Assembly (NCBI GenBank): GCA_963665235.2
Contig: CAXXLX010000001.1
Span: forward strand, 672,001-736,000
Length of the DNA stretch: 64,000 nt
Reading direction: 5' to 3'
DNA from: Candidatus Poribacteria bacterium
GTDB taxonomy: Bacteria > Poribacteria > WGA-4E > WGA-3G
This document shows, one piece after another, positions 35,579 to 59,843 of this stretch. Position 1 is the first letter of the stretch; every line of letters begins with the position of its first letter. Under the pieces are notes generated by a model that was not told the DNA's origin, searched no databases, and saw only the letters and a program-made list of their open reading frames with translations. The position numbers and the translations under genes were made by a program.

Positions 35579-36080
35579 TACCATTTCTAATTGAAAATGT
35601 CTCTTTCTTGTAGCCTAAACTTCCAGTTTGTGCTTTGTAGTAGCCTAAACTTCCAGTTTGTGCTTTGTAGTAGCCTAAACTTCCAGTTTGTGCTTTGTAG
35701 TAGCCTAAACTTCCAGTTTGTGCTTTGTAGTAGCCTAAACTTCCAGTTTGTGCTTTGTAGTAGCCTAAACTTCCAGTTTGTGCTTTGTAGTAGCCTAAAC
35801 TTCCAGTTTGTGCTTTGTAGTAGCCTAAACTTCCAGTTTGTGCTTTGTAGTAGCCTAAACTTCCAGTTTGTGCTTTGTAGTAGCCTAAACTTCCAGTTTG
35901 TGCTTTGTAGTAGCCTAAACTTCCAGTTTGTGCTTTGTAGTAGCCTAAACTTCCAGTTTGTGCTTTGTTGTAGCCTAAACTTCCAGTTTGTGCGTTCTTG
36001 TAGCCTAAACTTCCAGTTTGTGCGTTCTTGTAGCCTAAACTTTTAGTTTGGGTCCTCCGTTAAAGGGAATTAATAAAATT
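35579..36080 (+). repeat. MITE copy A with 30-bp tandem array (14 full units + 1 degenerate); right TIR missing
   Basis: TAA|TACCATTTCTAATTGAAAATGTCTC start; unit tagcctaaacttccagtttgtgctttgtag from 35611. Confidence 0.9.
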
Positions 36081-36084
36081 TAGA

Positions 36085-36364
36085 TGGGTGTGTAAAGTTT
36101 TTGTACAAGTAGGACTTACGCATTCCCCTCCGCTCCTCTACTAGCGGGATATCGGTATTAGTCCCAGTATTCGGGCAAACAGCCCGCTCTTCAAGGACGA
36201 TATCTTTATAGAAGCACAAAACGCCCACCCCCTCTTAGTCCCAGTATTCGGGCAACCAGCCCGCTCCTCATACTAGGGGAAAACTTTTCAAACTCACGTT
36301 ATACGACACGCCGGGCGATGAATCGCCCTACTACAAACGGGTGTACAAAAACTTTACACACCCA
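36085..36364. mobile_element. MITE with 23-bp perfect TIR containing REP-like hairpins
   Basis: tgggtgtgtaaagtttttgtaca / tgtacaaaaactttacacaccca; flanking direct repeat aatttaga. Confidence 0.75.
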
Positions 36365-36379
36365 ATTTAGACAAAATTA

Positions 36380-36408
36380 TTGACAGATAGCATATATAAT
36401 GTTATACT
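36380..36408 (+). promoter_or_regulatory. sigma-70 promoter of carH
   Basis: TTGACA-17-TATACT with TG extension; TAGACA just upstream. Confidence 0.7.
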
Positions 36409-36448
36409 TGTAAAATAACAAGCGGAAAAACGAAAAAGGAAAAGGCTG

Positions 36449-37399
36449 ATGACAGCTCAACATAAACACGGTATTAAAACTGTCGCTGTTCGGACAGGAT
36501 TAACACAACTTATCATTCGGACATGGGAAAAGCGATACAACGTGGTCACACCGATGCGAACCGAAACGAATCGCAGACTCTATTCCGATGCGGATATATC
36601 ACGACTCACATTGCTTCGTCTAGCGACTGAGACAGGACATAGTATTGGACGAATAGCAAACCTATCGACTGAAGAGCTTCTGAAACTCATTGGAACAGAT
36701 GGGACGGTTATGCAGGCCGCTGCAATTGCTAAAGAGGATGTCTCACAGGAAACATCCCTTCATTTTTACATCGCTTCGTGCATCGCAGCGGTTAAGAGAT
36801 TTGAAATGCAAGTGCTTGAATCAACACTCTTCGCTGCATCAGTTGCATTTAGCCAACCCGTTTTCCTTGAAAAGTTGATTGCCCCGCTAATGCGGGAAAT
36901 TGGTGAACAGTGGAGAGCAGGCACTTTACGCATTGCACATGAACATCTTGCCACCGCAGTTGTCCGGACGCTGTTGGGCAGCATCTCTCAGGGAGCTGAT
37001 GTCCCTGCTGCAACGCCAAATTTAGTGATAGCGACACCGCGGGGCCAACACCACGAAATTGGGGCGTTAATTGCTGGAAAGACTGCAGCGGCACAGGGGT
37101 GGCAAGTTACCTACCTCGGTACCGACCTACCCGCTGAAGAGATTGTAGGGTGTGCAGCGCAAAATGGGGCAAAGGCAATCGGGTTGAGTATCATCTACCC
37201 GACAGATGACCCACATATCGCAAATGAATTACGGAAAATTCGACGCGGAATTCAAAAAGATGTTGTTCTATTTGTCGGAGGGGCGGGGGCAATCGCTTAC
37301 GAGTCTGTCATTAGTGCTATCGGTGCAGTGAGAATCAATGATATGCCGACTTTTTGCACCGAACTTGAAAATCTGCGTGCTCAGCTTATTTTAACCTAA
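36449..37399 (+). CDS. carH: CarH/LitR MerR-family adenosylcobalamin photoreceptor repressor
   Basis: MerR HTH (IRTWEKRY..P.RT..NRRLYS), W-x9-EH, HEIG B12-binding motif; divergent from the crt operon. Confidence 0.92.
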   Translation: MTAQHKHGIKTVAVRTGLTQLIIRTWEKRYNVVTPMRTETNRRLYSDADISRLTLLRLATETGHSIGRIANLSTEELLKLIGTDGTVMQAAAIAKEDVSQETSLHFYIASCIAAVKRFEMQVLESTLFAASVAFSQPVFLEKLIAPLMREIGEQWRAGTLRIAHEHLATAVVRTLLGSISQGADVPAATPNLVIATPRGQHHEIGALIAGKTAAAQGWQVTYLGTDLPAEEIVGCAAQNGAKAIGLSIIYPTDDPHIANELRKIRRGIQKDVVLFVGGAGAIAYESVISAIGAVRINDMPTFCTELENLRAQLILT

Positions 37400-37544
37400 G
37401 TTGCCACATAGTAGCATAATCTTCCAGATTGTGCATATTTGTGTGCGAATTGGAAGGGAACGGGACAAATATTAGCTAATTATCAGCATATTTTCATTAA
37501 AGACGGTGTTTCCAGGTCTAAAAACTTATAAGTAGCAACTTGCG

Positions 37545-38882
37545 TTATTTTACAATAATCCGCTTAACCTGTCCATTGAGCCCCCCCACAGCAAGACTCC
37601 CATCGGTAGGATGGACAATCAAAGCATAAATCCAGCCATCAAGCGCGTCAATCTCATCTATAACCGCTACCGTATCCGGTTCGATGATACGGATACGCCC
37701 ATCAACACAGGTTGCAACGATTTTTGAACCCTCGTTTAACCAAGCAACGTTCAACGTCGCTGCGTCCAGTCTAGCGAACTTGACCATGCGGCCGATAGTT
37801 GGCTGCCAGAGCCGAACTGTCCGGTCATCGCTAGCGGAGGCAATCAGAGGCATCCCTGTATTGCCAGGACGCAGTGCCAGAGCATGCACAGGCATCGTAT
37901 GATTGTTCAGGCTTCTAAGCAGCTCACCAGTTGTCACGTTCCAGACGCGAACATTCCGATCGACTCCTGTACTCACGAGCGTTTCGGCATCTTGCAGGAA
38001 ACAGAGGGACGACACGCCGCGTGAATGCCCTTTCAGGTCTTGAGTCGGGGTACCGGTGCGTAGGTCCCAAAGAATGATGCGTCTGTCCAAACTTGCGGAT
38101 GCAAGTGATACCGTATTCCGCCAAGCCACCGCCATGACAGAATCGCGATGTCCCCGCAGTACACGGAGCGATTTTCCTTCCGGCCATGAAAAAATCTCTA
38201 CAGTGCCTTCAGTTGCTGGATTGCCACCACCAACCGCCACCCGGTCACCACTCGGTGAAAACGCTAGATGATGAACGTTACGCGCTTTTACCTTGATAAT
38301 TCGCTGTAGATTGAGCGTTGGCCAGTCGTAAACGTGCAATCCCGCCTGCGAAGATGCCACAACAGATTTGCCATCAGGAGAAAACGCGAGAGACGTAATC
38401 GGCGGCATAGTAGGAGGTAGGCTCTGCTGGGTCTTCCTAGCCTGCTTTTCAACAAGACTGCCCTGAATTCCCTTCCAATTCCCGTAGTCTGCTCCCGCTT
38501 CAATCCATTTTCGGATGAGGTCGGTTTGCGCTTTCGCTAAAGGCGCGCCTTCCTCTGATGGGGGCATGATACCGGTCTCACCTTCCGCTAAGGTAATACG
38601 CTGGTAAAGCAGGGAATCATCGGGCTCACTTGGGACAATAACCTCTCCGTGCAGGCTCTCCTCAATACCCTTTACGCTATCCAATTGGACACCGCCCTTC
38701 GGTTTCGTCATGGTGCCATTGGCATCCACCTTCGGCGCGCTATGACACCGGAAGCAGCTATTCTGGAGGATAGGCAAAACCTCTGTCTCAAAATCGATGT
38801 CGGTTTTGGAATCTGCTGAGATAACAGGCACAGCAAACATCAGGATAAATACAAAGCAAAATATACAATCTGCTAAATTCAT
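37545..38882 (-). CDS. planctomycete-type cytochrome c domain + WD40 repeats
   Basis: DFETEVLPILQNSCFRCH...IMPP...WIEAGA; WD40 repeats. Confidence 0.88.
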   Translation of the reverse strand: MNLADCIFCFVFILMFAVPVISADSKTDIDFETEVLPILQNSCFRCHSAPKVDANGTMTKPKGGVQLDSVKGIEESLHGEVIVPSEPDDSLLYQRITLAEGETGIMPPSEEGAPLAKAQTDLIRKWIEAGADYGNWKGIQGSLVEKQARKTQQSLPPTMPPITSLAFSPDGKSVVASSQAGLHVYDWPTLNLQRIIKVKARNVHHLAFSPSGDRVAVGGGNPATEGTVEIFSWPEGKSLRVLRGHRDSVMAVAWRNTVSLASASLDRRIILWDLRTGTPTQDLKGHSRGVSSLCFLQDAETLVSTGVDRNVRVWNVTTGELLRSLNNHTMPVHALALRPGNTGMPLIASASDDRTVRLWQPTIGRMVKFARLDAATLNVAWLNEGSKIVATCVDGRIRIIEPDTVAVIDEIDALDGWIYALIVHPTDGSLAVGGLNGQVKRIIVK

Positions 38883-38904
38883 CAGCCTTTTAATTTCCTT
38901 CTAA

Positions 38905-39560
38905 TACCATTTCTAATTGAAAATGTCTCTTTCTTGTAGCCTAAACTTCCAGTTTGTGCACTTTCTTGTAGCCTAAACTTCCAGTTTGTGCACTTTCTTG
39001 TAGCCTAAACTTCCAGTTTGTGCACTTTCTTGTAGCCTAAACTTCCAGTTTGTGCACTTTCTTGTAGCCTAAACTTCCAGTTTGTGCACTTTCTTGTAGC
39101 CTAAACTTCCAGTTTGTGCACTTTCTTGTAGCCTAAACTTCCAGTTTGTGCACTTTCTTGTAGCCTAAACTTCCAGTTTGTGCACTTTCTTGTAGCCTAA
39201 ACTTCCAGTTTGTGCACTTTCTTGTAGCCTAAACTTCCAGTTTGTGCACTTTCTTGTAGCCTAAACTTCCAGTTTGTGCACTTTCTTGTAGCCTAAACTT
39301 CCAGTTTGTGCACTTTCTTGTAGCCTAAACTTCCAGTTTGTGCACTTTCTTGTAGCCTAAACTTCCAGTTTGTGCACTTTCTTGTAGCCTAAACTTCCAG
39401 TTTGTGCACTTTCTTGTAGCCTAAACTTCCAGTTTGTGCACTTTCTTGTAGCCTAAACTTCCAGTTTGTGCACTTTCTTGTAGCCTAAACTTCCAGTTTG
39501 TGCCGTTCTTTGTTTCATTTCTAACAACCGGTAATGATAGAATAATTAATAAAAATGGTA
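38905..39560 (+). repeat. MITE copy B (complete) with 32-bp tandem array (18 cores)
   Basis: TAA|TACCATTT ... AAATGGTA|TAA; unit tagcctaaacttccagtttgtgcactttcttg 38937-39503. Confidence 0.92.
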
Positions 39561-39563
39561 TAA

Positions 39564-41744
39564 CTAATTATTGTTCACAAATTCGTTGCAGGTTAGCAGA
39601 CTCCACACCATGTCCTCAAGGACCGGGCGTTGCGAATTGGCGGATAGGCTGTCGTCAATATGCTCTTTCCAAAACTGCTGTTCCGTATCCGTTGGATTTC
39701 GGCTGAGCGCTGCGAGATAGAACGCGTTCACAATCTCCATCGGTGATTTTCCGCTTGCTATCAATCTGTCAAGGCGACTCTCCGGAACACCGATGCGAGC
39801 GTTGAGCAGGTCACCGTTGAAGAGATGGAGTTTCCGCTGAAGGCCGCCGGTTGTACCGGTTGAATTTTCGCACGACGTTTCACGGTTGCATCTACCGAGG
39901 ATATCAAGTGCATCCGATTGAATATTCGGATTGGATAATGAGACAGCACGTGTGCCTATCGGTTCGTTGCCGTACACACTCGGTACACCGAGGACATCGG
40001 AAATTGCATCCGCTAGCACCTCCGGTTCAAGCGGTTTTCGGAGTGCATGCGAATAGAAACGTTCATCTGTCCTGTTTTGCGGGAGCGTATTTGCGCTGCG
40101 TGCATAGGTCTCGCTAAGTGCGATACGTCTGAGCATATTCCGTAGGTCGTAACCGTTCGCCACAAAATCGGCTGCAAGTTCCGTTAGTAATTCGGGGTGT
40201 GTAGCCGGATTAGTGGCACGGAAATCATCAACAGGTTCCACAAGGCCGCGTCCCATCATCGCTTTCCACAATCGGTTGACGATGGCTTTGGCGAAATAGG
40301 GGTTGTCTGCCCCTGTTAACCAGTCTACAAGTGCTATTCTGCCATCTGCAACATCGGCAGACAAAAATTGAGTCCCAGGAATTCGCGGTATCGCCTTTTC
40401 GCCAGTTGCTGGATGGATAACCTCACCTGACGGTTTTACCTTAACCACCTGTTCACCCTCTATTTTGGCAAAGATTGCGGCTAACCCGTGATAATCGTCC
40501 TGTGTCCATTTGTCAAGCGGGTGATTATGACAATTAGCGCATCGGAGCCGGGCCCCCATGAAAAGTTCACTCATGAATTCTGCCTGCTCACGTGGACCAT
40601 TGACGGTGCGGTAAAAATTCGCTGGCCCAATGTCGTGGGAATCCCCGGTTGCAAGAATAATAGAACGTGCCATTTCATCATATCCAACCCTGTCGCGTAC
40701 CTGTTCGGAAAGCCATTGGTGATAAACAGCCGCGCCTTGTGTATCGTTATTTTGGGGACGAATCCGTAGCAGTTTCGCCCACTGCAATGTCCAGTACGTG
40801 CTAAACGCATCCGACTGCAGCAAGACATCAACAACCTTTTCCCGTTTATCTCTATCTGTATCTGCAAGAAACGTAGTGACAGCCGCTGGGGTAGGAATTC
40901 GTCCTGTCAAATCGAGTGTCACCCTGCGTAGGAAGGTGGCATCATCAGCAGGCGGAGACACAGGTAAGCGTAACCTTGCAAGCAATTTAAGAATTTCCCC
41001 ATCTATGTTTTCTGTCCTTTTACGGGTATCCTGCGGTATGGGTGTGTCGTTCAAGGGGGCGATGAACTCAAGCGGGACAACCTCTGTAAGATAACGCGCG
41101 ATGATAATGTGTCGCCCGTGGCGATGCACTTTGGCAACGGCATTGACTGCGTCAATCTCAACAGCTGAAGTATCCTCTGGTGTGAAAACAGACCATCGCG
41201 TTACATCTGCTGCGGTCCCGTCTGCAAAATGAGCCGTTGCTCGGAGTTGAATAGGCGTGCCAAGATGCGTTATCACCTGTTTTTTCGGGGATATTTCGAT
41301 ACGTTCCAAACGGCGCAACGTTTCATAACGTGCCCCTTGCTGAATCCAGTTTCGGAGTAATTGCGCGCCTTCGCTATTCTCGTCTAGGACGTGCCCCCCG
41401 CCATGTCTGGTTTGGGCGGTCGGTTTTAGAACAATCAGGCTATCTTCCGGATACATCAGGTTGATGCGTCTTCCAGCAAGCTGCCGAACAATTGCTACAT
41501 AATCCGCTTGTGGATTACCGCCGAAGAGGGATAGTTTAAACTCGCCTCTCCCCGCGGCTGAACCGTGGCATGCCCCTGCATTACATCCAAACTTGGTAAA
41601 AATTGGTATCAAATCGTTTTCAAAGTCAACGCGGGCGATGTTTTGTTCCGATTCAGGATTGCTGTTTGCAAAGGTTGTATTTTCACACAAGAAAAGCGTG
41701 GCTACTAATGTTAATGCTATGAGAACTAGCTGATTTACTTTCAT
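39564..41744 (-). CDS. DUF1549/DUF1553 protein with Ig-like domain
   Basis: GCNAGACHG, FLRRVTLDLTGRIPT, CANCHNHP, NRLWKAMMGRGLVEPVDD, HPELL. Confidence 0.9.
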   Translation of the reverse strand: MKVNQLVLIALTLVATLFLCENTTFANSNPESEQNIARVDFENDLIPIFTKFGCNAGACHGSAAGRGEFKLSLFGGNPQADYVAIVRQLAGRRINLMYPEDSLIVLKPTAQTRHGGGHVLDENSEGAQLLRNWIQQGARYETLRRLERIEISPKKQVITHLGTPIQLRATAHFADGTAADVTRWSVFTPEDTSAVEIDAVNAVAKVHRHGRHIIIARYLTEVVPLEFIAPLNDTPIPQDTRKRTENIDGEILKLLARLRLPVSPPADDATFLRRVTLDLTGRIPTPAAVTTFLADTDRDKREKVVDVLLQSDAFSTYWTLQWAKLLRIRPQNNDTQGAAVYHQWLSEQVRDRVGYDEMARSIILATGDSHDIGPANFYRTVNGPREQAEFMSELFMGARLRCANCHNHPLDKWTQDDYHGLAAIFAKIEGEQVVKVKPSGEVIHPATGEKAIPRIPGTQFLSADVADGRIALVDWLTGADNPYFAKAIVNRLWKAMMGRGLVEPVDDFRATNPATHPELLTELAADFVANGYDLRNMLRRIALSETYARSANTLPQNRTDERFYSHALRKPLEPEVLADAISDVLGVPSVYGNEPIGTRAVSLSNPNIQSDALDILGRCNRETSCENSTGTTGGLQRKLHLFNGDLLNARIGVPESRLDRLIASGKSPMEIVNAFYLAALSRNPTDTEQQFWKEHIDDSLSANSQRPVLEDMVWSLLTCNEFVNNN

Positions 41745-43110
41745 TTGCTTTGTCCTTGTTTTCGTTCTTTCCCAATCTCGGATGGGTTCGTTTCCTCAAT
41801 ACAATATAGATGCGTAAGCGAACGGAGATATGAGCGCATTGTCTGCAGACGGCACCAGATGCGATAAACCCATCATCAAACTCATTCCGGGCGATTAATT
41901 TAAATTCACGCGCCGCACGGATAACGGACACGCGTCCTTCCATGCTGAAAAAGTAGATGTTGCCGCCTGCATATAAGGGGGATGCCCAATGATTTCCGCC
42001 GATACGACCTCTCCATACTGGGTTTCCGTTTTTTGCCTCCACACAAGAAGCCACACCACCCTCGTTAACCATAAACATCAAATCATCTATGATGAGTGGC
42101 GATGGTATTTCAGGGGCCCCTTTGCGATTGCGCCAAACGATATGTGTATCCGTAACATCGCCTGTCCCAGAGGGATTAACCGCTAACAGTAGTTTTTCTA
42201 CGCCGGTTGTAAAGTAGACGAGATTATGTGCAAAAATCGGTCGGCATGCAACGTTCCAACCCCATCCTTCATGTTGAACTCGCCAGAGTTCATCGCCTGT
42301 TTTCGGGTTATAAGAGATTGTGACTTCTGCTGCAGGACTAATCAATTGTTTCCTTCCCTGATAAGTGATGATTGTCGGCGTTGCGTAGGATTTCCTGTTA
42401 TCATTAGGTTTCTCTTTTTTGGTTTTTTCGGTATCGGTAATGCCCTTCGCTCTGAGAACAGCCTCGAAATCTGAGTCAACTTTTCGATGTTCTAACCACA
42501 AAGTGTCGCCCGTATTTTTGTCAAGTGCTGCAACAAACTGTACATCGACACCATCAAAAGTCAGAAATAGTGCGTCTTCATCAATAATTGGCGAAGAAGC
42601 GGGACGCACCCGGTGGTCACAGTTGAGATTTCTCCGTTCCCAAAGTGTATCGCCAGTTTTCGTGTCCAAACAGGCGGTGCCATAAGTGCCGTAATGAACG
42701 TAGATGCGTCCATCCTCTATAACAGGCGTAGGTGATGCATGACTGTTAAGCTCCGCATGTTCGAGTTGCGGCTCTGTTACATCGAACACTTTTATATCGT
42801 GCAAAATATCGCCGCTTTCTAAGTCTACACAGACAGCAAAAAGTTCGCGCCCATCTTCACGCGCGGTTGTTACCCAAATCTGATTCCCCCAAACGACTGG
42901 TGATGAATATCCCTTGTCGTGAATAGGCGTTTTCCAACGGACGTTTTCCGTTTCACTAAATTCGATAGGAAGGTCAGTCGTACTTATCGTGCCATCTCCG
43001 TTTGGGCCACGGAACTGATGCCAATAGTCCTCACCGGTGCAGCTCTGTGGATTCAAACAGGTAAAAGAGAAAACTACCAGCATCAAAACAGTTAAACCAA
43101 ATCTATACAT
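41741..43110 (-). CDS. PQQ-like beta-propeller (BamB-like) protein; 3' end apparently frameshifted
   Basis: WHQFRGPNGDG, SSPVVWG, ASPTPV; expected tail ADNALI-LRSLTHLYCI recovered by removing two single bases at ~41830 and ~41847. Confidence 0.8.
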
Positions 43111-43136
43111 GTCCTCACCTCGTCCGTTATTGTATA

Positions 43137-44228: not shown

Positions 44229-44247
44229 ATTCACTTTCCTTTTCCTT

Positions 44248-45642: not shown

Positions 45643-45654
45643 TTTCCTCTCCTT

Positions 45655-49312: not shown

Positions 49313-49375
49313 CGTGAGTTCCTCCTCGTTTGTTTTACTACTATAAAATACTATTTGTCAATACGGAGTAATAGT

Positions 49376-50887: not shown

Positions 50888-51075
50888 TCTTTAGTTCCTA
50901 ATATTCACGACACTTTGACCAATTTTAGTGCCAGCTTTATGCAACTTAACATTAAATAGTCTAACCGAAATTCCGGTAAATGTCAAGTTTTTTAAGATTT
51001 CTCCAAAAACCCGCGTCATGCCATTTGCCATTAAGCCAAAAAACTTTACGATGGACAGAACACGCAGCACACCCC

Positions 51076-53328
51076 TCAATCAATTGAAATCTCCTCAGTT
51101 GAATGCACAAACAACACGTCATTCACACCTTCATACCGGAGGAGTATGTCCCTTAACTTGTCGGAACGGAGGTCTTCCTGTGTTAATCCGAGGATGATGA
51201 GGTCGGCTTGGGCGGAGCGGTATATCACCTCCTGCTCTAAATCTTCCGCGTCTTCATAAGAGATAGAGGTGACATTTTGTGCTGAAATCGGCAGGCGTCC
51301 CTCTTTGATTAAGGTTGCTAGCTCGTCTTCTGCCTCCCGTTCAGTATCGGTGGCACTGGTGCATGCGAAAAGTTGAATTTTAGCGCGTTTCCACTGTGGG
51401 TGGCCGACAATAATATATGCAAGCAATAACATCATCGGTGTGTTTGCTAAGTTCTCCTCTGTTACCCAGATATGAATTGAGGAGTGGTAGCCGAATCGGT
51501 ATTTCGTTGAGCGCAGGATAAGGAGATTGAACAGGGACTCTACGGTGAGGCGAGCTCCCAGCTCAATTTCGCTAATCTCCTCCGGTTCAGCCTCGTCGAA
51601 TTCAAGGAGGATACAATTGTTGGCGAGCCCGGAGATTCCTGGCATTTGCAATACTTGCGTCAAAGCCCCTTGGAAGGTCGGACTAATAAGCGAATCGACA
51701 AAAACGCCTGCTCCGCTGACCTCTGTCTGCTGGACCAGTTCTTCAACGGAGATGCGCGCTTCAATTTCGCTAAGAAAAGAGTATTCCCCCTGGAAGAGTT
51801 GGATGAATTGTCCGAACCCGTGCCTATGACAGAGAAACCGGAGCAGGTCGAAGTGTCCGAGCCGGCGTTCACCGAATCGGTTTACAGCGACAATCGAGGG
51901 GCGCCATCCCGCTTCGGATAGGTTCGCTCGACTTTTCTGTGAGGTAATATGTAGCCACCGGGTGAGTTGGAACATCGTGCCTTGGAATATCGCCGCTAAA
52001 CCGCGCTGTTCCTTGTGCGTCCGCCGAAGTCCGAGATAAATACTCCCCATTAGAAAGATGGCGATGGATGCGTAGAGGACGCTTATTTGAATCATCATAA
52101 AACCGCACATCACGGCACCTAACAGCGACACGTACCAGCGGGAGTGAAAGGTCGGACGGTAAGAGGGGCTGCCGGCGAAATGCTCAAGGAACGAGACAAG
52201 ACAGAGCGCACCATAGGTCACTATGAAAAACATCGTGAGGATTTGTGCAATTAAATCCAGTTCTCCGATGGCGACGAAAACTAACGCAATCGCACCGGAT
52301 AGACAGGTCGCATTTACCGGTTCTTTCCGTTTCCCGGTACCTTTTGCCATTAAACGGTTCAGCGGCGGAAACGGCATCACCTTATCACGTGCAAGGGCTT
52401 GAAGCGTTCTAGGTGCCACCATAATTGAACCGATGGCGGAGGAGAGGGAGGCCGCGCCCAATCCGATGTAAATTGCGGGCCCCCATAGGGCGATTTTTGT
52501 CATGATAAAATTATCCTCGGCGAGGTCTGTGGGGATTGCACTCCGGTCAAGTTTAATAGCAACCAAGATGTATACAATCATGCCCGTGACAGTTGCAACG
52601 ATGGTGCCGAGCGGAATACTTCTTTGCGGATTCTTCAAATCCCCCGACAATCCTAGCCCGGCGGTCATGCCGGTAAAGGCGGGAAAACACGTTGCGAAAA
52701 TTATGCCGAAAGCATCAGGGTTTTCAATCGGGGTCAAGGCATTGGTAGCATCCGGGTCTATTGTGGTTTTGCCGAATAGGAAGGTGATAATCGACAACCC
52801 AAGTATCATACTTACTGCCCACAGCACCCCTACGCCGAGGTCAGCACCTTTTGTTAGCATCAGAACGAGGAGCAGCAGGATACAAGGAATGCTTATATAG
52901 CGAGAGTCAATTTCCAATTGATGTGTGGTTTCAAGCCAACTATAGAGCGGTTGAAAAGCTTCCGAGAAGGCGACTATATAAAATGCAACAGAGATGGCTT
53001 CCGAAAGATATAGCGCAATTCCGATTGCACCACCGATGCTTGTCCCGAACGAACGGCTCACAATATAGTAGGCACCGCCACCTGCCACCCGACGGTTCGT
53101 GGCTATCTCAGCCACTGCCAATGCTGTGGGAATTGTCACCAGATGACCGAGCCCGATAATCGCAAGGCTCCCCCAAAGCCCAGCGTGCCCGACTGCATAA
53201 CCGAAACGCAAAAACAGGATGGCACCGAGAATAGTGTTAATTGCGGCTAAAAAGACAGGCGCGGTGCCAAACCCGTGCTCCTGTTCATGAGAATCCGCAG
53301 CGCGGTTTCCGTTGGACTTTGAGGACAT
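51076..53328 (-). CDS. APC-family cation-chloride cotransporter-like permease
   Basis: ILGAILFLR, GGGAYYIVSRSFG, FPAFTG..AG...SGDLKNP. Confidence 0.88.
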   Translation of the reverse strand: MSSKSNGNRAADSHEQEHGFGTAPVFLAAINTILGAILFLRFGYAVGHAGLWGSLAIIGLGHLVTIPTALAVAEIATNRRVAGGGAYYIVSRSFGTSIGGAIGIALYLSEAISVAFYIVAFSEAFQPLYSWLETTHQLEIDSRYISIPCILLLLVLMLTKGADLGVGVLWAVSMILGLSIITFLFGKTTIDPDATNALTPIENPDAFGIIFATCFPAFTGMTAGLGLSGDLKNPQRSIPLGTIVATVTGMIVYILVAIKLDRSAIPTDLAEDNFIMTKIALWGPAIYIGLGAASLSSAIGSIMVAPRTLQALARDKVMPFPPLNRLMAKGTGKRKEPVNATCLSGAIALVFVAIGELDLIAQILTMFFIVTYGALCLVSFLEHFAGSPSYRPTFHSRWYVSLLGAVMCGFMMIQISVLYASIAIFLMGSIYLGLRRTHKEQRGLAAIFQGTMFQLTRWLHITSQKSRANLSEAGWRPSIVAVNRFGERRLGHFDLLRFLCHRHGFGQFIQLFQGEYSFLSEIEARISVEELVQQTEVSGAGVFVDSLISPTFQGALTQVLQMPGISGLANNCILLEFDEAEPEEISEIELGARLTVESLFNLLILRSTKYRFGYHSSIHIWVTEENLANTPMMLLLAYIIVGHPQWKRAKIQLFACTSATDTEREAEDELATLIKEGRLPISAQNVTSISYEDAEDLEQEVIYRSAQADLIILGLTQEDLRSDKLRDILLRYEGVNDVLFVHSTEEISID

Positions 53329-53351
53329 AATGAATACCCCTTTTCATAGTT

Positions 53352-55331
53352 TTAGAATTTTCCAAAAACGCGTACGAAAATTTCCATAAAATTCTGGTCA
53401 TTGACTTCGCCCACTGCACGCTGATCGATGTACCGTGCCCCGATGTGTAGAAAAAGTTGTTTCCGATAGGCGAGGAAACTTTTTTCCATTTCAGCTAGTA
53501 GGGCTTGACGCACAAAATCGTTATCGTTTACTAACATATCATTGAATAAGAGAATCTGTCCGCCCCCAGTAAGTTTGATAGTCTTCGTGAACTGATAGAC
53601 AACTTTCAGAATGAATGCGGAAGCCATATCGCGCACATAAGCCCTTTCAATCTGGCGTAATCGGAGGCGGCGTGAAATGAATTCGCCATCAATTTCTGCA
53701 GCAAAAGCTAGGTCTACAAGGCGGTCCTCCGCCATCCTGAAACCGTTGCGCACAGTATATTTGAACATCGGGCTAATTTCCAATGACTTGGAGGGCCGCA
53801 GGCGGTACAAGGTTTTGAAAATACCGACTTCGTAATGTTCATTATCCCTATCAAAATCGATGTCGTATTGCAGCTTAGCGCGGGCGGTTGTGATCATTCG
53901 GTCAATCCCGTGATATTCCCAAGTGATTTTAGCAGTGTTAATTAGGTCGTTTTGCATCAGTAGCGGGTCTTTACGGCGTTTTTCTACTTCGGTGCCCCCC
54001 TCAACCCCGAAGAATTGCAGGTCTCCCGCTGCTTCCATTTGTTGAATTTCCGGGTCAGAACGATAGAGACGTTCATTTTGTCTGCCCAGAAATCCAGCAA
54101 AATACCATGTTTCATCAGGGATGCTATCCTTAACGAGTTTGAGTTCGTTCTCGAAAATAAGTGAGGAGGCTCTTTCGAGGCGGCGTTTGTAAACCGTGTT
54201 AACGAACCCCTTTTTTGAAGATGGAGTATCTCGGAATCTTAGGTTTTTTTCGACCTGTAGACCGATGTCCAGATCGAGGGTTCCCGTATCCCGTTTCATC
54301 TTACGGTTCATCAAAAGGCGTATACCTTTCAATCCGATGTCAAATTCGTAATTCGGTTCCTTATCATTTTCTTCCTCGTCCCTGATGCCGTTGTTGTTCC
54401 GGTCGCTTTCATCTAGGAAATCCTCATCGACATCAAAGAGCAGGATGTCGTCTTCATAATCGAAGGTACCGTTGTTATTCTTATCCAGGTCCCCTGGAAT
54501 AATCAGAGAAGGCGGGTCAGCAAACGTGTTATCGGTGTATCTGTCCTGGTCATCGTTATCGCCGACTGCGTGGTCAGCATCGAATCGGGGTCCAACGCGG
54601 AACGCCTCTGCTTGAAAGAGCGTGTCGCCGACAGTTCGGAACGCCTTGAAGACGGTTGTTGTTGCATCAAAACGTGCACGTGCATTTTTTCCCAACGCGC
54701 TTTTAGGCGTTACCGCAACCTCCGCTTTCACCCCGTAGTTGGTGAAATTGGTTTCCATATCCACTGACCATACGGGGGTTCCCCGGAAATACCAGGAGAG
54801 CCCTAACTGTGACTTACCAAACTTCGTGACTTGACGTAAACCGATGCCCGACCCCTCTGTTTGTGATTCTTGACCGTTCAGACGGTTGAGGGTGCCTGGA
54901 ACCATGAGAATTGTCCAATCGGTGCGGTTAGAACGCACCTCCCAACGGATACCGTCCAAATCGATTCGATCGAAGGTGAACTTCGTGAAAGTGGTCGGGA
55001 CTTCACCAAGGCTGAGGATATTTTTGACACCGCCGGCGGTTTCCTCTATCACCATAACGCTATGAAAACCGCGGCGAAAGAGCCGGTCAAAATCAAAATT
55101 GTCTTTCCGTATACGTTCCTCCTCTGTGTCAGCGAGGAAGTTGCGTCTATTTGTGAAATCGTATTCAACACGTCCGGACAAAAACAATTTGCCGAATAGA
55201 CTGTAGACATCCTCTGCTTCACTCCAGCTGGCGAAAAAACAGCAGAGCCCGACGAGCATAGACACTAGAAAACATTTAACGTAAGAACGGCGAGGACTCA
55301 ACCGTTTTAAAGGGGCTGTTTTTGTGTCCAT
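53352..55331 (-). CDS. hypothetical exported protein, probable outer-membrane beta-barrel with Ca-binding loops
   Basis: Signal peptide; DNDDQD, DKNNNG, DRNNNG motifs; C-terminal amphipathic strand ending in F. Confidence 0.65.
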   Translation of the reverse strand: MDTKTAPLKRLSPRRSYVKCFLVSMLVGLCCFFASWSEAEDVYSLFGKLFLSGRVEYDFTNRRNFLADTEEERIRKDNFDFDRLFRRGFHSVMVIEETAGGVKNILSLGEVPTTFTKFTFDRIDLDGIRWEVRSNRTDWTILMVPGTLNRLNGQESQTEGSGIGLRQVTKFGKSQLGLSWYFRGTPVWSVDMETNFTNYGVKAEVAVTPKSALGKNARARFDATTTVFKAFRTVGDTLFQAEAFRVGPRFDADHAVGDNDDQDRYTDNTFADPPSLIIPGDLDKNNNGTFDYEDDILLFDVDEDFLDESDRNNNGIRDEEENDKEPNYEFDIGLKGIRLLMNRKMKRDTGTLDLDIGLQVEKNLRFRDTPSSKKGFVNTVYKRRLERASSLIFENELKLVKDSIPDETWYFAGFLGRQNERLYRSDPEIQQMEAAGDLQFFGVEGGTEVEKRRKDPLLMQNDLINTAKITWEYHGIDRMITTARAKLQYDIDFDRDNEHYEVGIFKTLYRLRPSKSLEISPMFKYTVRNGFRMAEDRLVDLAFAAEIDGEFISRRLRLRQIERAYVRDMASAFILKVVYQFTKTIKLTGGGQILLFNDMLVNDNDFVRQALLAEMEKSFLAYRKQLFLHIGARYIDQRAVGEVNDQNFMEIFVRVFGKF

Positions 55332-55380
55332 ATTTTATCATTTTCCCAGAAAATCTTTTAGCGAAACCGATCTCCGGGGT

Positions 55381-58300
55381 TTACCTTAAAATATCCTCTG
55401 GTCCGTAAGATTCAGTGAAAGTCGTCCAAATTCCGGTGCGTTTATCGAGGCGGCTCAAGCCGCGATAGGTGCCGAACCAGACATACGTGCTGCCAATATC
55501 CATGGAAAGTATACCGTTATGGGCTAATCCCTCTTCGCGCGTGTAAGTTGTCCAGGTATTCGTCAACTGGTTGAACCTGCTGACACCTGCATTATAGGTG
55601 CCAATCCACACGTCTGTGCCATCAACCCCGATAGTGGTAACCTTGTTGCTTGCGAGTCCATCGTCTGTCGTATAGGTTTGCCAAACGTCCGAGGTCCCAC
55701 CGAGGACATCCTTAGTCTTTTCATTATAAAGCGTTACCCCTCGGTTGCTGCCAAACCAGACACGATTGCCATCAATTGCGATACAACTGACTTCATTGCT
55801 CACGAGTCCATCTTCGGTTTTGAGCGTTTTCCAGATGTCACGCCCGATATCATATCTGCTGACCCCGCGGCGCGTTCCGACCCAGACATGTTTCTGGCTC
55901 GCCGTGATACACCAAATTTCATCGGTAACTAATGATTCCGCGAACTCTTTGGATACAGCCGATGGTTGAATTGCAGAACCGGACGTATAAGCAATCCAAG
56001 CATTGAGGTCATCTGAAGTTCGCGGATATTTACCGAGCCCAGAATTCGTGCCTACCCAGATATTATTACCGTCAGTGCTAACAGATGTGACATTATTCGC
56101 GGGCAATCCGTGTTCAGTTTTGTATTGAGTCCAGCGAAGTGCAAGCTTATCAAAACGGTTTGCACCGTCTCGGGTGCCAACCCAAACATATTGCTGGTCA
56201 ACAACAATAGAGCTAACAGCGTTATCGGAGAGCATACCGCGTGATTTGGGGCGATGCCGATGCCAGTGCCCATTGTGTGTTGCTATCTCTTCTGCCCCCC
56301 CTGTCTGCTTATAGTTTTTCCATGTTCCTAAGACCATGTCGTACCGAGACAAACCGCTGTCTGTTCCGACCCATACAAAACGTTCGTCTGTATCCACAGT
56401 GCGGATGGTCCGTCCAGAAAGCGTTGGCAACGGTGGAAAAGGTGTCCAAGATTCTTTCTGTTTGTCATAACGGGAGAGCCCCCGTATCGTTCCAACCCAC
56501 ACATAGTTTTCGTCAACTGCCAGCGCGTATTCTCCTACATGATTATGCAGCAGCCCTTTGATGTCTTTAAACGTTGTCCATGTACCGGAGGCGAAATGAA
56601 AACGCCTGAGTCCATCGTTCGGTGCGGCTAACCAGAGCGAGTCACCGTCTGCAGCTAACTCAAGCGTCCCACGCCCTGACGTGATTGTCGTCCACTCCTT
56701 ATTGTGTCTGTCGTATCGGGTGACCACATTATCCCAAGGTCTGTATTGTATCCAAACATCGTTCTCTGTTGCGATGATGCGTCTAATGGTTTTGGCAGCG
56801 AGCACGTCATTGGTTGAAAACGTGGCCCATCTCTTTTCCTTTTTATCGTATCTTGACAACGGCCGGTTGCTGCCTCTATCGTGTTCGGAGCGGGCCACCC
56901 AAATGAAATCTTCATCAATCGTAATCCATTCGGTACCTCTCCCTGCTAACCCATCTCTCGGTGTGAATTCCTTCCATTCCTTCGTATCTTCATTGTACCG
57001 CGTGAGACTATGTCCGGACCCGAACCATACCTCCGGCCCATCAACAGCGAGTCCCCTTAGTCTTTCATGTTCCTCTCTCCTATCCGGTTGGGTGACAATC
57101 TCCCATGTGCCGGTTGCTTTATCATAACGGTTTAGAGCCATCCCAACCATCGGTATAATCCAGACGCTCTTTTCACTGACAGCAATTTTGTCGAGGTCGT
57201 CTACAGAGAGTCCATCTTTCATTGTAAAATGTTGCCACGTATCCAAGGCTTTATCATAGCGGAGGGCACCGAAGTCTGTTGTGAACCACACTGCGTCTTT
57301 ATCTACATACGTCCAGCGCAACGTTGTCATAGTTTTTTTCAGGGTAGAGTGGAAAATATCCAGACGTGTGAAACGTTGCCAGGTTTTTGTCGGCCGGTGA
57401 AACCGTAAAATACCCCCGTTCCGCGAAGTGCGCCAGTTGGAAAACCATACATAATCCCCATCGAATTTGATATGTGAAGTGCGGGTTTCAAGTAAGGGTT
57501 CGCGCACGGGTCGGGAGAGATGCGCCACCTCTTCGCCATTTTTCACAGCATATTCAATGAGCCCGGTAGCGGTCGCTAACCACAGTTTTCCGTTGTTATC
57601 ACAAACGATATCGCGAATGTTATACTGTTTTCCGAGGGAGTTCCATTTTCTAGTTGCAATCGTGTAACTTCGCATCCCCTGCGGTGTACCGACCCAAAGG
57701 ACACCCTCCCGATAAGCAAGGGCTGTGATATTAGCCGTAGTTAACTGTTCCTTAGCAGTGGGTTCTAAAGGTATAGGTATCCAACGCTGCTGCGTGCTGT
57801 CATATTTTGCGAGTCCTCCCTGTGTCCCTGCCCAAAGCGTCCTCTCCACGGAAAGCAGAACATTCACGTAAGGTTTCTGAAGTCCTTCGGCAATCCGATA
57901 CATCTGCTTATCCGCGATTGAATAGGACCACACCCCCTCTACGCCACCGAACCACACATTTCCATCATGAAAAAGGACAGACAATATCAGCGGGTTTTTG
58001 GGGGTATCGGGCAGTGGAAGGGACATCCATTTTTGGATTTTTGTGTCATACATCGCCGGGCCCGAGTTGGTGCCAAGATAGAGCTGTTCTTGAACGTTTG
58101 AATCCTGCTGCGCGGCAGCTACTGCTGTTACAAAGGCTTCGCCTTGTGTGGGAAAGTGAAAAGTCCACTGTCCGCCTGGGTATGTGCACGAACCGAGTCC
58201 TCGCGCTGTCCCAATCCAGATTTGCCTCGGGTTGGGTAACCCAACCCCTACACTCGTATGCGTGGCAACTTCACTGAAGTCGTTCTGTTGCAATTCGCTT

Positions 58301-59607
58301 GTGTGTGCTGCGACATGTACGGACATGACGTACGGGGTTGGCAGCCCATCCTCTTTAGAGATGACCTCCCAAGTCCGCGTGTGGGGGGTGTAAATTGAGA
58401 TACCAGCGACTGTCGCCATATAGAGGTTCCCATCAGCATCGTGCGTTATACCTCGGACATCGTTATCCGCCAAAAAATCTGCTTGTTTGTAACGTGTCCA
58501 GGCACCGGTAACCTTATCAAAGCGGCTGACTCCATCCTCTTTACTTGCAAACCAGACATTATCCCCCTGTGTCGTAATCCAACTGACATGATTACTAGAC
58601 AAACCATCTGCCTTTGTGTAATGCACCCAGGTATTGACCGGTTTGATGAAACGGTGCACACCTGCATTAGCAGTTCCGAACCAGACCTGAAACCCATCCG
58701 AGCGGATAGAGGTGATAAAATCGCTTTTCAACAGATCGGTTTTGGTATACGTTTTGATGAACGTCTGGTCGACCTGATTATATTGACTGACTCCCCTGTA
58801 TTGTGTACCGAACCAAACGCTGTTCTCATCTACAGCAATAGTGGCAATTTCGTTATCTATCAACCCATCCGATTTTGTGTAGTTATTCCAGGAGTCTGTA
58901 TCTCGGTGGTATCGACTAACGCCACCCTTGCTGAATCTCGGATCATCGTCCCATCCATGCGGGTCCGGATTTATTTCCCTATCCGTACCGACCCATACGT
59001 ACTCCGGTTCCACGGCGATAGTTGTAACCACTCTGCTAATTAAGCCATCTTTGCGGGTACGAACTGCCCAGCTGTCTATCGTTTTGTCGTACCGGTTCAA
59101 GCCGTTAGATGTGCCGAACCAGACATAGTTTCCATCCACAGCAATAGAGGACACCTGATCGCTTGCGAGCCCATCGGTACTCCGGAAGGTTGAAAAAGTA
59201 TCGGTATCGGTGTTATAGCGGCTCACACCTTCATCTGTAGCGAACCAGACCCATTTACCATCAACTGCAACGGCGTTCACGGTATCATTTGCCAATCCAT
59301 TTTCCATTGTGTAGTGGTGCCATGTGTTTTGGAGACGTTTCCAGCGCGAGACCCCTTTCTCCGTTGCCACCCATACGTTATCTGAATCCGCTGCAATACA
59401 GTTGACTTCGTTGCTGATAAGCGTCCGTTCTACAGGCCACGTCTTTTTGGGTTTTGAATTTGCAGGCGTTTCGGATTGCGGATCGGTGATTCCAAGGGGA
59501 CCACACCCTATAAGTAAAAGGAGGTATATTAGCAATAGTAGTGGCGATACAACTGAACGTTGGAATCGTTCAATACAGAAATCGTTTTCTTGTGCTTGTT
59601 TTATCAC
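55381..59607 (-). CDS. large multi-beta-propeller lipoprotein (Reg_prop-like repeats)
   Basis: LLIGC lipobox; many 'DGL..N.V..I..DG..VWFGT..GVSRYD' repeats. Confidence 0.85.
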   Translation of the reverse strand: MIKQAQENDFCIERFQRSVVSPLLLLIYLLLLIGCGPLGITDPQSETPANSKPKKTWPVERTLISNEVNCIAADSDNVWVATEKGVSRWKRLQNTWHHYTMENGLANDTVNAVAVDGKWVWFATDEGVSRYNTDTDTFSTFRSTDGLASDQVSSIAVDGNYVWFGTSNGLNRYDKTIDSWAVRTRKDGLISRVVTTIAVEPEYVWVGTDREINPDPHGWDDDPRFSKGGVSRYHRDTDSWNNYTKSDGLIDNEIATIAVDENSVWFGTQYRGVSQYNQVDQTFIKTYTKTDLLKSDFITSIRSDGFQVWFGTANAGVHRFIKPVNTWVHYTKADGLSSNHVSWITTQGDNVWFASKEDGVSRFDKVTGAWTRYKQADFLADNDVRGITHDADGNLYMATVAGISIYTPHTRTWEVISKEDGLPTPYVMSVHVAAHTSELQQNDFSEVATHTSVGVGLPNPRQIWIGTARGLGSCTYPGGQWTFHFPTQGEAFVTAVAAAQQDSNVQEQLYLGTNSGPAMYDTKIQKWMSLPLPDTPKNPLILSVLFHDGNVWFGGVEGVWSYSIADKQMYRIAEGLQKPYVNVLLSVERTLWAGTQGGLAKYDSTQQRWIPIPLEPTAKEQLTTANITALAYREGVLWVGTPQGMRSYTIATRKWNSLGKQYNIRDIVCDNNGKLWLATATGLIEYAVKNGEEVAHLSRPVREPLLETRTSHIKFDGDYVWFSNWRTSRNGGILRFHRPTKTWQRFTRLDIFHSTLKKTMTTLRWTYVDKDAVWFTTDFGALRYDKALDTWQHFTMKDGLSVDDLDKIAVSEKSVWIIPMVGMALNRYDKATGTWEIVTQPDRREEHERLRGLAVDGPEVWFGSGHSLTRYNEDTKEWKEFTPRDGLAGRGTEWITIDEDFIWVARSEHDRGSNRPLSRYDKKEKRWATFSTNDVLAAKTIRRIIATENDVWIQYRPWDNVVTRYDRHNKEWTTITSGRGTLELAADGDSLWLAAPNDGLRRFHFASGTWTTFKDIKGLLHNHVGEYALAVDENYVWVGTIRGLSRYDKQKESWTPFPPLPTLSGRTIRTVDTDERFVWVGTDSGLSRYDMVLGTWKNYKQTGGAEEIATHNGHWHRHRPKSRGMLSDNAVSSIVVDQQYVWVGTRDGANRFDKLALRWTQYKTEHGLPANNVTSVSTDGNNIWVGTNSGLGKYPRTSDDLNAWIAYTSGSAIQPSAVSKEFAESLVTDEIWCITASQKHVWVGTRRGVSRYDIGRDIWKTLKTEDGLVSNEVSCIAIDGNRVWFGSNRGVTLYNEKTKDVLGGTSDVWQTYTTDDGLASNKVTTIGVDGTDVWIGTYNAGVSRFNQLTNTWTTYTREEGLAHNGILSMDIGSTYVWFGTYRGLSRLDKRTGIWTTFTESYGPEDILR

Positions 59608-59631
59608 TTCTCCCTTTTCCTTTATAGGTTA

Positions 59632-59843
59632 TACCATTTTTATTAATTATTCTATCATTACCGATTGTTAGAAATGAAACGGAGAACGACCCAAACTGGA
59701 AGTTTATGCTACAATAAAGAGGCACAAACTGGAAGTTTATGCTACAATAAAGAGGCACAAACTGGAAGTTTATGCTACAATAAAGAGGCACAAACTGGAA
59801 GTTTATGCTACAATAAAGAGACATTTTCAATTTAGAAATGGTA
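59632..59843 (-). repeat. MITE copy C (complete) with 33-bp tandem array (4 cores)
   Basis: Same ends as copy B, TAA TSD; unit tagcataaacttccagtttgtgcctctttattg. Confidence 0.9.

Follow-up and report, generated by a model that had tools for sequence, protein, structure and literature searches.

Three copies of one repetitive element in the window

The window analyzed here, a stretch of 64,000 nucleotides, is part of the genome of a sponge symbiont, a metagenome-assembled genome (MAG) of Candidatus Poribacteria in four contigs. A first-pass annotation had described three copies of a repetitive element in it, and all three lie where they had been placed, with the sequence described, save for the end of copy A. 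This copy (35579 to 36061, plus strand) starts with TACCATTTCTAATTGAAAATGTCTC at 35579, directly preceded by TAA (35576 to 35578, plus strand), and comprises a leader, 15 cores of a GTAGCC variant with a 30-bp period, and a trailer cut after ...CCGTT. Its end had been set at 36080, but similarity to the trailer of the family extends only to about 36061; the right flank is lost, and no trailer was detected within 3 kb. The final unit of copy A carries a TTTT loop and GGG. Copy B (38905 to 39560, plus strand) is complete, with leader, 18 cores, and a 57-bp trailer ending in AAATGGTA; it contains 17 identical 32-bp units and is bordered by the target duplication TAA at 38902 to 38904 and 39561 to 39563 (both plus strand). 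Copy C (59632 to 59843, minus strand) is likewise complete, its 212 bp holding four cores with the linker CCTCTTTATT. It is flanked by TTA on the plus strand both at its trailer end (59629 to 59631) and at its leader end (59844 to 59846), i.e., by TAA/TAA in the orientation of the element, so that the shared trailer and the TAA duplications claimed for copies B and C are borne out. The tandem arrays themselves, also as reported earlier, span positions 35603 to 36050 in copy A (plus strand, 30 bp × 14.9, 98% matches), 38929 to 39510 in copy B (plus strand, 32 bp × 18.2, 99%), and 59692 to 59820 in copy C (minus strand, 33 bp × 3.9, 100%). A sister MITE with IS982-type ends (TAACCTAAGTTGCC...GCAACTTGCGTTA) and TTT/TTT flanks is located at 37392 to 37547 (plus strand) and holds a compensatory variant of the core, GTAGCATAATCTTCCAGATTGTGC, at 37411 to 37434.

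A MITE family with 3-bp target duplications

Leaders and trailers were collected across the genome by blastn-short. The search returned 154 leaders and 163 trailers forming 148 pairs, of which 140 represent distinct elements of at most 1000 bp that share both leader and trailer. These paired elements are found on three contigs, measure 112 to 967 bp, and contain 1 to 27 units, 121 of the 140 having at least two. The basal form of the shell, 112 to 116 bp long and devoid of genes, has the ends TACCATTT.../...AAATGGTA. Its terminal inverted repeats, TACCATTTCTAATT... and the reverse complement of ...AATAAAAATGGTA, are identical in the first 8 nt and match at 17 to 19 of 30 positions. Identical 3-bp flanks border 121 of the 140 elements (TAA, 64; TTA, 54; GTA, 2; TCA, 1); of the remaining 19, eight combine TAA with TTA, and the rest are mostly truncated or nested copies. 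Terminal inverted repeats, a target duplication of fixed length, small size, absence of coding sequence, and many dispersed copies together identify the shell as a MITE, and it behaves as the DDE-mobilized shell that the first-pass annotation had proposed. A single short module is repeated in tandem, with no unique spacers, between a leader and a tail, which makes the element a modular MITE.

A transposase bounded by the shell ends, for which the first-pass annotation had suggested a search, is absent from this genome: no such gene lies between TACCAT ends (TACCATTTCT...AGAAATGGTA) with TWA flanks, and the 22 candidate end pairs all proved to be MITEs, nested insertions, or chance occurrences. 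The 1.4-kb segment C1:3547208-3548602, at first a possible autonomous parent, encloses a decayed IS4-like IS whose ends are different (ACTAAAGTTTGGACAAT) and is therefore a nested insertion. The DDE_Tnp_1 elements examined also have different ends, and DDE_Tnp_4 (PF13359) had no match in the genome. An IS982-family transposase, which scores 154 bits on NF033520 (cutoff, 130), is the putative mobilizing enzyme, acting in trans. The IS982-family elements of the clade begin with TAAC and show equal 3-bp flanks in 7 of 14 end pairs (GTA, TCA, TTA, TTC, TAG); the MITE, which makes 3-bp duplications as well, begins with TACC. The 30 IS982-family loci from relatives have the ends TAACC or TAACG, and the agreement between the IS982 ends (TAACC...) and the MITE ends (TACCA...) is confined to a few bases.

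The inner unit is a REP-like GTAG hairpin

The REP-like module consists of a T-rich tract followed by GTAGCATAAACTTCCAGTTTGTGC, which folds as a 9-bp hairpin. Specifically, the core of 24 nt is made up of a GTAG tag, the 9-bp stem, and a 3-nt loop. A degenerate 21-nt core pattern, GTAGCMTAAACTTYYAGTTTG, has 1044 matches in the genome versus none for the reversed control. The predicted folding energy is −5.3 kcal/mol as DNA and −8.3 kcal/mol as RNA, and none of 200 shuffles folded equally well. Full pairing is retained in variants in which A-T is replaced by T-A (100 copies) or by G-C, or AA/TT by GG/CC. The compensatory stems counted here are ATAAACT/AGTTTGT (603), ATAATCT/AGATTGT (100), and GTGAACT/AGTTCGC (7), and GTAAACT/AGTTTGC and ATAGGCT/AGCCTGT occur in relatives; selection thus acts on the hairpin stem. 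The arrays with a weakened stem (GTAGCC variant, copies A and B) are among the longest, so that the hairpin may or may not contribute to expansion. The core is constrained and the linker free, with 91 of 101 dominant cores being canonical versus 39 distinct linkers. Neighboring cores in this shell have the same orientation in all 865 pairs. In other Poribacteria, the core resides in at least four other MITE shells, and in such shells of relatives (L012, L018, L044, and L087) it is paired with an inverted, diverged partner. The tag, the compensatory changes, and these inverted doublets uphold the earlier description of the inner unit as REP-like. A CRISPR array was rejected because unique spacers are absent: the linkers comprise only 3 to 12 nt, and all units are identical in 25 of the 96 arrays with at least four units.

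Such conservation might also reflect a benefit to the host. The arrays would then be kept and sized by selection, the units serving as protein-binding hairpins, promoter- or terminator-like elements, or RNA stabilizers, as has been proposed for BOX, BrickBuilt, and REP elements. The core is preserved across genera and in at least five shells with compensatory stem changes, which fits a host function but may equally reflect the needs of a mobile element for its own spreading. Folding is more favorable for the top strand than for the bottom strand, both as DNA (−5.3 versus −4.1 kcal/mol) and as RNA (−8.3 versus −5.0 kcal/mol). By crude gene calls, 35 of the 140 elements are situated between divergent genes, compared with 12% of all intergenic gaps, and segments of BrickBuilt are reported to have promoter activity (PMC4596501). 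Contigs bearing units occur in the metatranscriptome run X9, none of them on the unique flanks of copy C, and their source may be any copy, any organism, or DNA. On the other hand, orientation relative to the neighboring genes shows no preference (47 versus 38 for the two tandem classes), 20 of the 140 elements overlap a long open reading frame by more than 30 nt, and the number of units varies 3- to 5-fold within one lineage. Rfam contains no family for the units, the sole match (MIR834, E = 0.4) being due to chance. Altogether, we regard maintenance for a host function as improbable. Contig C1 shows a weak GC skew and no clear replichores.

The hairpin is itself a target of insertion. An IS630-family IS (NF033545, 176 bits) is located exactly in the hairpin loop in all seven full copies, with one identical base on each side in seven of eight insertions. 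The IS630 family normally duplicates TA, from which the single flanking base differs. Precise insertion into the loop of a hairpin unit is likewise a property of IS elements that target REP hairpins, such as IS1397 and ISKpn1. ISPpu9 is a further element of this kind (PMC8450116).

Arrays are transposed with the shell and change in place

According to the first-pass annotation, each locus has its own linker. Linkers are instead specific to lineages, with 39 types spread over 101 arrays and cosegregating with shell variants. The shell haplotype is the same in 58 of 182 pairs with identical linkers; shuffling gave a mean of 19.7 and a maximum of 44, and none of 2000 shuffles reached 58. Since the linker type tracks the shell lineage, the arrays were transposed together with the shell. 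The elements at C1:3840070 and C2:428789, for example, have three units each and are 99% identical in unrelated flanks. A nested insertion is common to the elements at C1:1548500 and C2:659921, which are 98% identical, and their relative at C1:2290536 has nine units instead of five. Multi-unit elements have thus been transposed whole, and consequently amplification was not simply subsequent to each insertion. The number of units also changes at a given locus. The sequence of contig C3 is approximately 99% identical to C1:999-1033 kb, and one insertion common to both has two units in C1 versus five in C3 (array lengths as assembled); a second array in this comparison has 15 versus 13 core matches. 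Of the amplification in situ proposed earlier, the change at the locus therefore stands, whereas its restriction to the time after insertion does not.

That the arrays, or their lengths, are artifacts of assembling a repeat-rich metagenome is highly improbable. Array lengths do rest on the assembly, and in runs X1, X2, and X4 the Logan contigs break off some 26 nt into copy C; yet contigs of three runs from two studies reach the edge of the element at the same site. A total of 115 arrays with 39 linker types are embedded in unique flanks with matched target duplications, their units carry defined variants in ordered blocks, and arrays are also present in further Poribacteria assemblies (L010, L020, L040, and L092). 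Moreover, the genome comprises only four contigs, which suggests that long reads were used.

Within the arrays, canonical units are found at the last position in 44 of 107 arrays, at the first in 96 of 107, and at middle positions in 529 of 636 cases. The diverged unit on the trailer side is the edge effect to be expected from unequal exchange. Taken together, we consider it probable that the family is a nonautonomous DDE-type MITE carrying a REP-like module that behaves as a minisatellite, with arrays traveling along with the shell. The module and a short linker (period, 27 to 35 bp) would be duplicated inside the MITE, and the array would then grow or shrink, presumably through slippage during replication or through unequal exchange among its units. 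Either process would homogenize the inner units and leave the trailer-side unit diverged, and transposition of the shell carries the whole array along. Because the arrays ride with the shell, the linker is a property of the MITE lineage and the unit number one of the locus. Slippage alone leaves two observations unexplained: the two bases immediately 3′ of the hairpin vary greatly (CT, CA, CG, TG, TT, CC) while the rest of the unit is fixed, and every family of GTAG hairpins in the genome, that of its RAYT included, is arranged almost exclusively head to tail.

The RAYT of the genome and its own REP

The latter observation concerns an alternative in which a REP-associated tyrosine (HUH) transposase builds the arrays in trans and the MITE shell does no more than ferry its substrate to new sites. 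The RAYT of this genome, or one since lost, would recognize the T-rich tract, GTAG, and the hairpin and copy units head to tail, e.g., through successive rounds of cutting and rejoining on single DNA strands. A single RAYT exceeds the NCBIfam cutoff (C1:831739-832152, NF047646, 136 bits versus 80), and on its flanks lie arrays in which its own, different REP, GTAGGAGCGTGCTGTGCACGCGA, is repeated head to tail. This REP is present in 431 copies, with 272 neighboring pairs in the same orientation versus 3 inverted, and forms 30 arrays with periods of 28 to 79 bp and no common shell. Both families obey one grammar, in which a tract rich in pyrimidines (CTCTTCT or CTTTATT/CTTTCTT) precedes GTAG, and a hairpin whose loop has 3 nt is followed by the variable bases. 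RAYTs of relatives (L127 and L134) similarly adjoin runs of REPs in the same orientation, and a published model derives complex REP arrays from RAYT processing (reported in PMC3733652). All of this fits an enzymatic origin of the arrays.

Several observations argue against it. The link between the core and HUH enzymes that the first-pass annotation had drawn was not recovered: the core lies beside none of the 12 Y1 loci of this genome and none of 56 loci in relatives, namely the 30 best Y1 loci from 30 relatives plus 26 RAYT-like loci. A core-like variant, GTAGCATAGGCTGTTAGTCTGTGC, does occur near another REP at one locus (L137). In the core-rich genomes G007 (63 cores) and G012 (32 cores), the RAYTs are associated with other REPs. 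The variable junction bases are hard to reconcile with the precision with which HUH enzymes cleave and rejoin DNA, and the diverged edge unit together with the 30-bp steps between near-identical contigs is the outcome expected of plain slippage. We therefore rate enzymatic formation of the arrays as unlikely. Its generalized form, that poribacterial GTAG hairpins are amplified head to tail by a dedicated enzyme, likeliest a RAYT in trans, with the core as an orphan REP, appears rather doubtful. If it were true, an orphan core lacking a RAYT of its own would survive by riding several DDE-type MITE shells and being copied locally by a foreign RAYT; this would amount to a three-layer mobile system, to which the loop-landing IS630-family element adds a fourth layer.

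Whichever process builds the arrays, how REP-type hairpins multiply and why some of them form ordered tandem clusters has been an open question since the discovery of REPs, addressed only by speculation in the relevant parts of the reports by Di Nocera et al. (PMC3733652) and Bertels and Rainey 2011 (PMC3116915). The present genome offers an unusually clean system. A single hairpin is present about 1000 times, distributed over some 115 arrays, and the linkers, as lineage markers, allow transposition to be told apart from expansion at a locus. In addition, there is a genuine RAYT with a REP of its own that has the same head-to-tail habit, and a natural comparison in the near-identical contig pair that differs by whole units. 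One hairpin module in several unrelated MITE shells, along with a loop-targeting IS630-family IS, bears on how small mobile elements exploit one another. For the genomics of sponge symbionts, the arrays are likely causes of assembly breaks and of recombination between copies, and likely markers for strain typing.

Comparison with known systems

A literature search for Poribacteria in combination with MITEs, tandem repeats, or transposases retrieved no paper on these elements. The first-pass annotation did not recognize the family as a described one, which is correct with respect to sequence alone. An architecture of leader, tandem module, and tail has been published for BOX (PMC3049150) and BrickBuilt (PMC4596501), and tandemly reiterated REPs are in print as well (PMC3733652). 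The family described here matches BOX and BrickBuilt in architecture and is unusually large and modular.

In BrickBuilt of Porphyromonas gingivalis (Klein et al. 2015, PMC4596501), 23-nt units form a spacer-less array between a leader and a tail, with small inverted-repeat ends. As with the present elements (units of 27 to 35 nt), BrickBuilt is intergenic and lacks an internal transposase; its ends resemble those of a DDE IS family, a likeness that may hold here as well. Only 4 of its 19 copies have both ends, and the target duplications are irregular (PMC4596501), in contrast to the roughly 150 copies with clean 3-bp TWA duplications found here. In the passages cited, the BrickBuilt unit is not described as a GTAG hairpin, whereas the unit here is a GTAG hairpin of REP type and is present in other shells as well. 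The likeness is one of architecture, and no sequence kinship is expected.

The boxB module is 45 nt long and, unlike the core here, is not known to carry a GTAG tag. BOX elements of Streptococcus pneumoniae and S. suis (Croucher et al. 2011, PMC3049150) nevertheless share the modular form A-B(n)-C, with a middle module in tandem and in variable number, and strains differ more in the longer arrays. Two distinct sets of end modules enclose one and the same boxB in S. suis (PMC3049150), just as one core occupies several shells in Poribacteria. BOX elements range from 67 to 637 bp, and their description as cited mentions no RAYT-type context (PMC3049150).

With GTAG-tagged REPs (PMC3733652, PMC3116915), the core has in common a GTAG at one end of a short stem-loop and a high copy number. 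REPs may be tandemly reiterated with variable flanking DNA, and in A. variabilis REP dimers are part of longer palindromic sequences (Di Nocera et al. 2013, PMC3733652). Classical REPs flank a RAYT and mostly form inverted dimers (REPINs); neither applies to the core in this genome, which is arranged almost exclusively head to tail, has an AT-rich stem, and rides in a MITE bounded by terminal inverted repeats and target duplications.

Copies in the window and distribution over the genome

The three copies (A, B, and C) that the first-pass annotation had placed in the window were confirmed at their positions. Tandem Repeats Finder resolved their arrays, with 98-100% matches across all three, as 14.9 repeats of 30 bp in copy A (window positions 35603-36050), 18.2 repeats of 32 bp in copy B (38929-39510), and 3.9 repeats of 33 bp in copy C (59692-59820). 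Copies B (38905-39560) and C (59632-59843, minus strand) are complete and carry TAA on both flanks in element orientation. Copy A, which retains its leader and has 15 cores, ceases to match the family trailer at about 36061, and the trailer is absent within 3 kb.

Other mobile elements lie nearby. Beside the truncated copy A, from 36086-36106 onward, GGGTGTGTAAAGTTTTTGTAC is followed by AGGACTTACGCA, the end of an element whose inverted repeat also bounds a DDE_Tnp_1 insertion sequence (IS; 516 aa) at C1:4356515; the trailer end is replaced by AGGACTTACGC in four further MITE copies. Copy C is abutted at 59853-59872 by ACTATAGTTTGGACAATATC, which is similar to the end (ACTAAAGTTTGGACAAT) of an IS4-like IS with an intact copy at C1:341521-342907. 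An IS200/IS605-type pair on the minus strand (60545-62201), 0.7 kb from copy C, comprises a TnpA of 137 aa (Y1_Tnp, E 5.9e-31) and a TnpB-like gene of 426 aa (OrfB_IS605 plus Cas12f1-like TNB), and its flanks are devoid of hairpin units. In contigs of the metatranscriptome run X9 corresponding to 59602-59871, word depth was 17-80 for unit sequence and 0 for the unique flanks, a signal that could stem from any copy, any organism, or DNA carry-over.

Candidatus Poribacteria are sponge symbionts. In the genome searched here (5.31 Mb, 4 contigs), of which the window covers C1:672001-736000, blastn-short detected 154 leaders and 163 trailers, yielding 148 leader-trailer pairs and 140 distinct elements of at most 1000 bp, which together account for 0.8% of the genome (42.7 kb). 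The shortest element has 112 bp and one unit, the longest 967 bp and 27 units; the median is 5 units, and 121 elements have at least two. Equal 3-bp flanks were likewise found in 121 of the 140 elements (TAA 64, TTA 54, GTA 2, and TCA 1). Among the other 19, eight combine a TAA flank with a TTA flank (e.g., C1:202861, C1:773988, and C1:3508869), the rest being mostly truncated or nested copies; such mixed flanks are the expected outcome of recombination between two copies and hint at rearrangements mediated by the MITE family. A degenerate core pattern matched 1044 times in the genome, whereas the reversed control gave 0 matches.

The hairpin core and its spread among relatives

The core, GTAGCATAAACTTCCAGTTTGTGC, folds into a hairpin whose 9-bp stem includes a T-G wobble and whose loop is 3 nt long. 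Its folding energy amounts to -5.3 kcal/mol for DNA and -8.3 kcal/mol for RNA, values equaled by none of 200 shuffles, while the opposite strand folds more weakly (-4.1 and -5.0 kcal/mol, respectively). Fully paired two-sided stem variants occur both in this genome (ATAAACT/AGTTTGT 603, ATAATCT/AGATTGT 100, and GTGAACT/AGTTCGC 7) and in relatives (GTAAACT/AGTTTGC and ATAGGCT/AGCCTGT). These paired changes on both sides indicate that the stem is under selection. Linkers vary far more than cores: the dominant core is canonical in 91 of 101 arrays, whereas dominant linkers, 4-12 nt in length, come in 39 different forms.

Within the same family, 15 of the 24 other genomes contain the core; by genus, it is present in 6 of 9 and in 9 of 9 genomes of two genera and in 0 of 6 genomes of three further ones. 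It occurs in 0 of 16 genomes from three other families of the order. The count per relative genome is 1-63, as opposed to 1044 here. When 80 loci in other Poribacteria MAGs were sorted by a rough regular expression, 21 had the shell (leader and trailer) of the studied family, 13 a TATAGTGAA shell with a second hairpin, 7 and 5 two further TATAGT shells, and 1 an IS982-type shell, with 33 unclassified. Short arrays of the core are also present in relatives (loci L010, L020, L040, and L092), where the same core is in addition found with an inverted, diverged partner. This distribution across genera and shells indicates a module older and wider than the studied shell; this genome has experienced a burst of both transposition and expansion.

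An IS630-family element of 1241 bp (NF033545, 176 bits; ends ATGAAGATTAA...) is located exactly at the tip of a GTAG hairpin; this holds for 7 of 7 full copies and four partial ones, with sites at C1:1853470-1854710, C1:737491, C1:1687073, C1:2925533, C1:3591521, C4:10439, and C2:852876-855349. For one full copy, the host site is an unrelated GTAG palindrome. In 7 of 8 cases, one identical base flanks the IS on either side instead of a TA duplication, and ends of this IS also lie beside core partners in relatives. One copy is itself split by a second IS630-like IS.

Origin and variation of the arrays

Several linker types are common to more than one locus (CTCTTTATT in 10 arrays, CGTTCTT in 8, and CGTTTTATC in 7), and linker type co-occurs with diagnostic leader and trailer substitutions. 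An exact shell haplotype was common to 58 of 182 same-linker pairs; shuffles gave a mean of 19.7 and a maximum of 44, none of 2000 reaching 58. The 3-unit elements at C1:3840070 and C2:428789 are 99% identical, each with two different linkers, and occupy unrelated sites with their own TAA duplications, which shows that multi-unit elements moved whole. A nested 290-bp insertion is found in both C1:1548500 and C2:659921 (98% identity), whose relative at C1:2290536 has 9 units versus 5. Within one linker lineage, unit number varies widely (5, 6, 12, and 27 for CTTTGTA).

The 34-kb contig C3 matches C1:999349-1032654 at about 99% identity, either as another haplotype in the population or as the product of a recent duplication. 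Within this shared stretch, one insertion, set in the same flanks in both contigs, comprises 2 units in C1 but 5 in C3, so that the two differ cleanly by 90 bp; a second array has 15 versus 13 core matches, and a single-unit copy is unchanged. The unit is canonical in 96 of 107 first, 529 of 636 middle, and 44 of 107 trailer-side positions, the last being diverged by a TTTT loop or GGG, as slippage or unequal exchange would be expected to leave at an array edge. Hence, of the proposal that amplification occurred in situ after insertion, the local setting of unit number holds (2 versus 5 units), whereas array and linker are inherited with the shell by transposition (58 of 182 pairs).

Candidate mobilizing enzyme and relation to RAYTs

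A search for a transposase between the family ends, suggested by the first-pass annotation, found none bounded by TACCAT ends in this genome; the long "elements" proved to be MITEs carrying nested ISs. In this clade, the ends of IS982-family elements (NF033520, 154 bits) read TAACCyAAGTTGC or TAACGTGAGTTTG, and 7 of 14 end pairs are flanked by the same 3 bp on both sides (GTA, TCA, TTA, TTC, and TAG). A sister MITE with about 60 matches of its leader word is represented at window 37392-37547 by a copy with TTT/TTT flanks, true IS982-type ends, and a compensatory core variant. The 3-bp duplication and TA(A/C)C start common to the studied shell and the IS982 family make an IS982-family enzyme our best guess for the candidate mobilizer.

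With its GTAG tag and selected hairpin, the core has the architecture of a REP, and the first-pass annotation had suggested looking for a RAYT flanked by it. The core flanks 0 of 12 Y1 or RAYT loci in this genome, 0 of the 30 best Y1 loci from 30 relatives, and 0 of 26 RAYT-like loci of relatives, whose RAYTs are each flanked by GC-rich GTAG hairpins of their own. An enzymatic, RAYT-driven origin of the arrays, against which these counts speak, may nevertheless apply as a rival to slippage, since head-to-tail arrays with a constant hairpin are also formed by the REP of a RAYT itself. The only RAYT of this genome above the curated cut-off (C1:831739-832152, 157-160 aa; NF047646, 136 bits versus 80) is flanked by head-to-tail arrays of its own REP, GTAGGAGCGTGCTGTGCACGCGA. 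This REP has 431 copies, with 272 same-orientation versus 3 inverted neighbor pairs, and makes up 30 arrays that lack a common shell and repeat every 28-79 bp; one array has 23.7 versus 25.7 copies, a two-unit difference, at two places with the same flanks. A constant hairpin, a locus-dependent linker, and head-to-tail order are thus general habits of this genome's GTAG hairpins, seen in 115 arrays of the studied core, 9 of the sister core, and 79 further arrays that contain GTAG.

At C1:831200-833200, about 26 head-to-tail 34-bp REP units lie on one side of the RAYT and 4-5 inverted units on the other. Units of about 50 bp (hairpin AGCCCCAGCGGGGC, then GGTATCTTTATAGAA) occur at window 59960-60060 and many genome sites, in tandem arrays of at most 20 copies; a related family (AGTCCCGTAGGGACGATATATTTATAGAA) also forms arrays of up to 20 copies.

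Comparison with known systems

The MITE family is real and well bounded, and its design is of a known kind. In P. gingivalis, BrickBuilt is described as a MITE whose leader and tail enclose a minisatellite of 23-nt units (PMC4596501). BOX elements hold a tandem boxB array between boxA and boxC; longer ones show more length variation, and S. suis has the same boxB between different end modules (PMC3049150). For REPs, head-tail dimers are described as rare in most genomes (PMC3733652), and Bertels and Rainey report tandemly repeated REPIN clusters and clusters adjoining RAYTs (PMC3116915). The literature searched yielded no account of such elements in Poribacteria. The view that this is not a described family stands for its sequence, but not for its design. 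New are the MITE family itself and its scale, a REP-type module common to several shells, an almost exclusively head-to-tail arrangement that the RAYT's own REP also shows, and a loop-targeting IS630 element.
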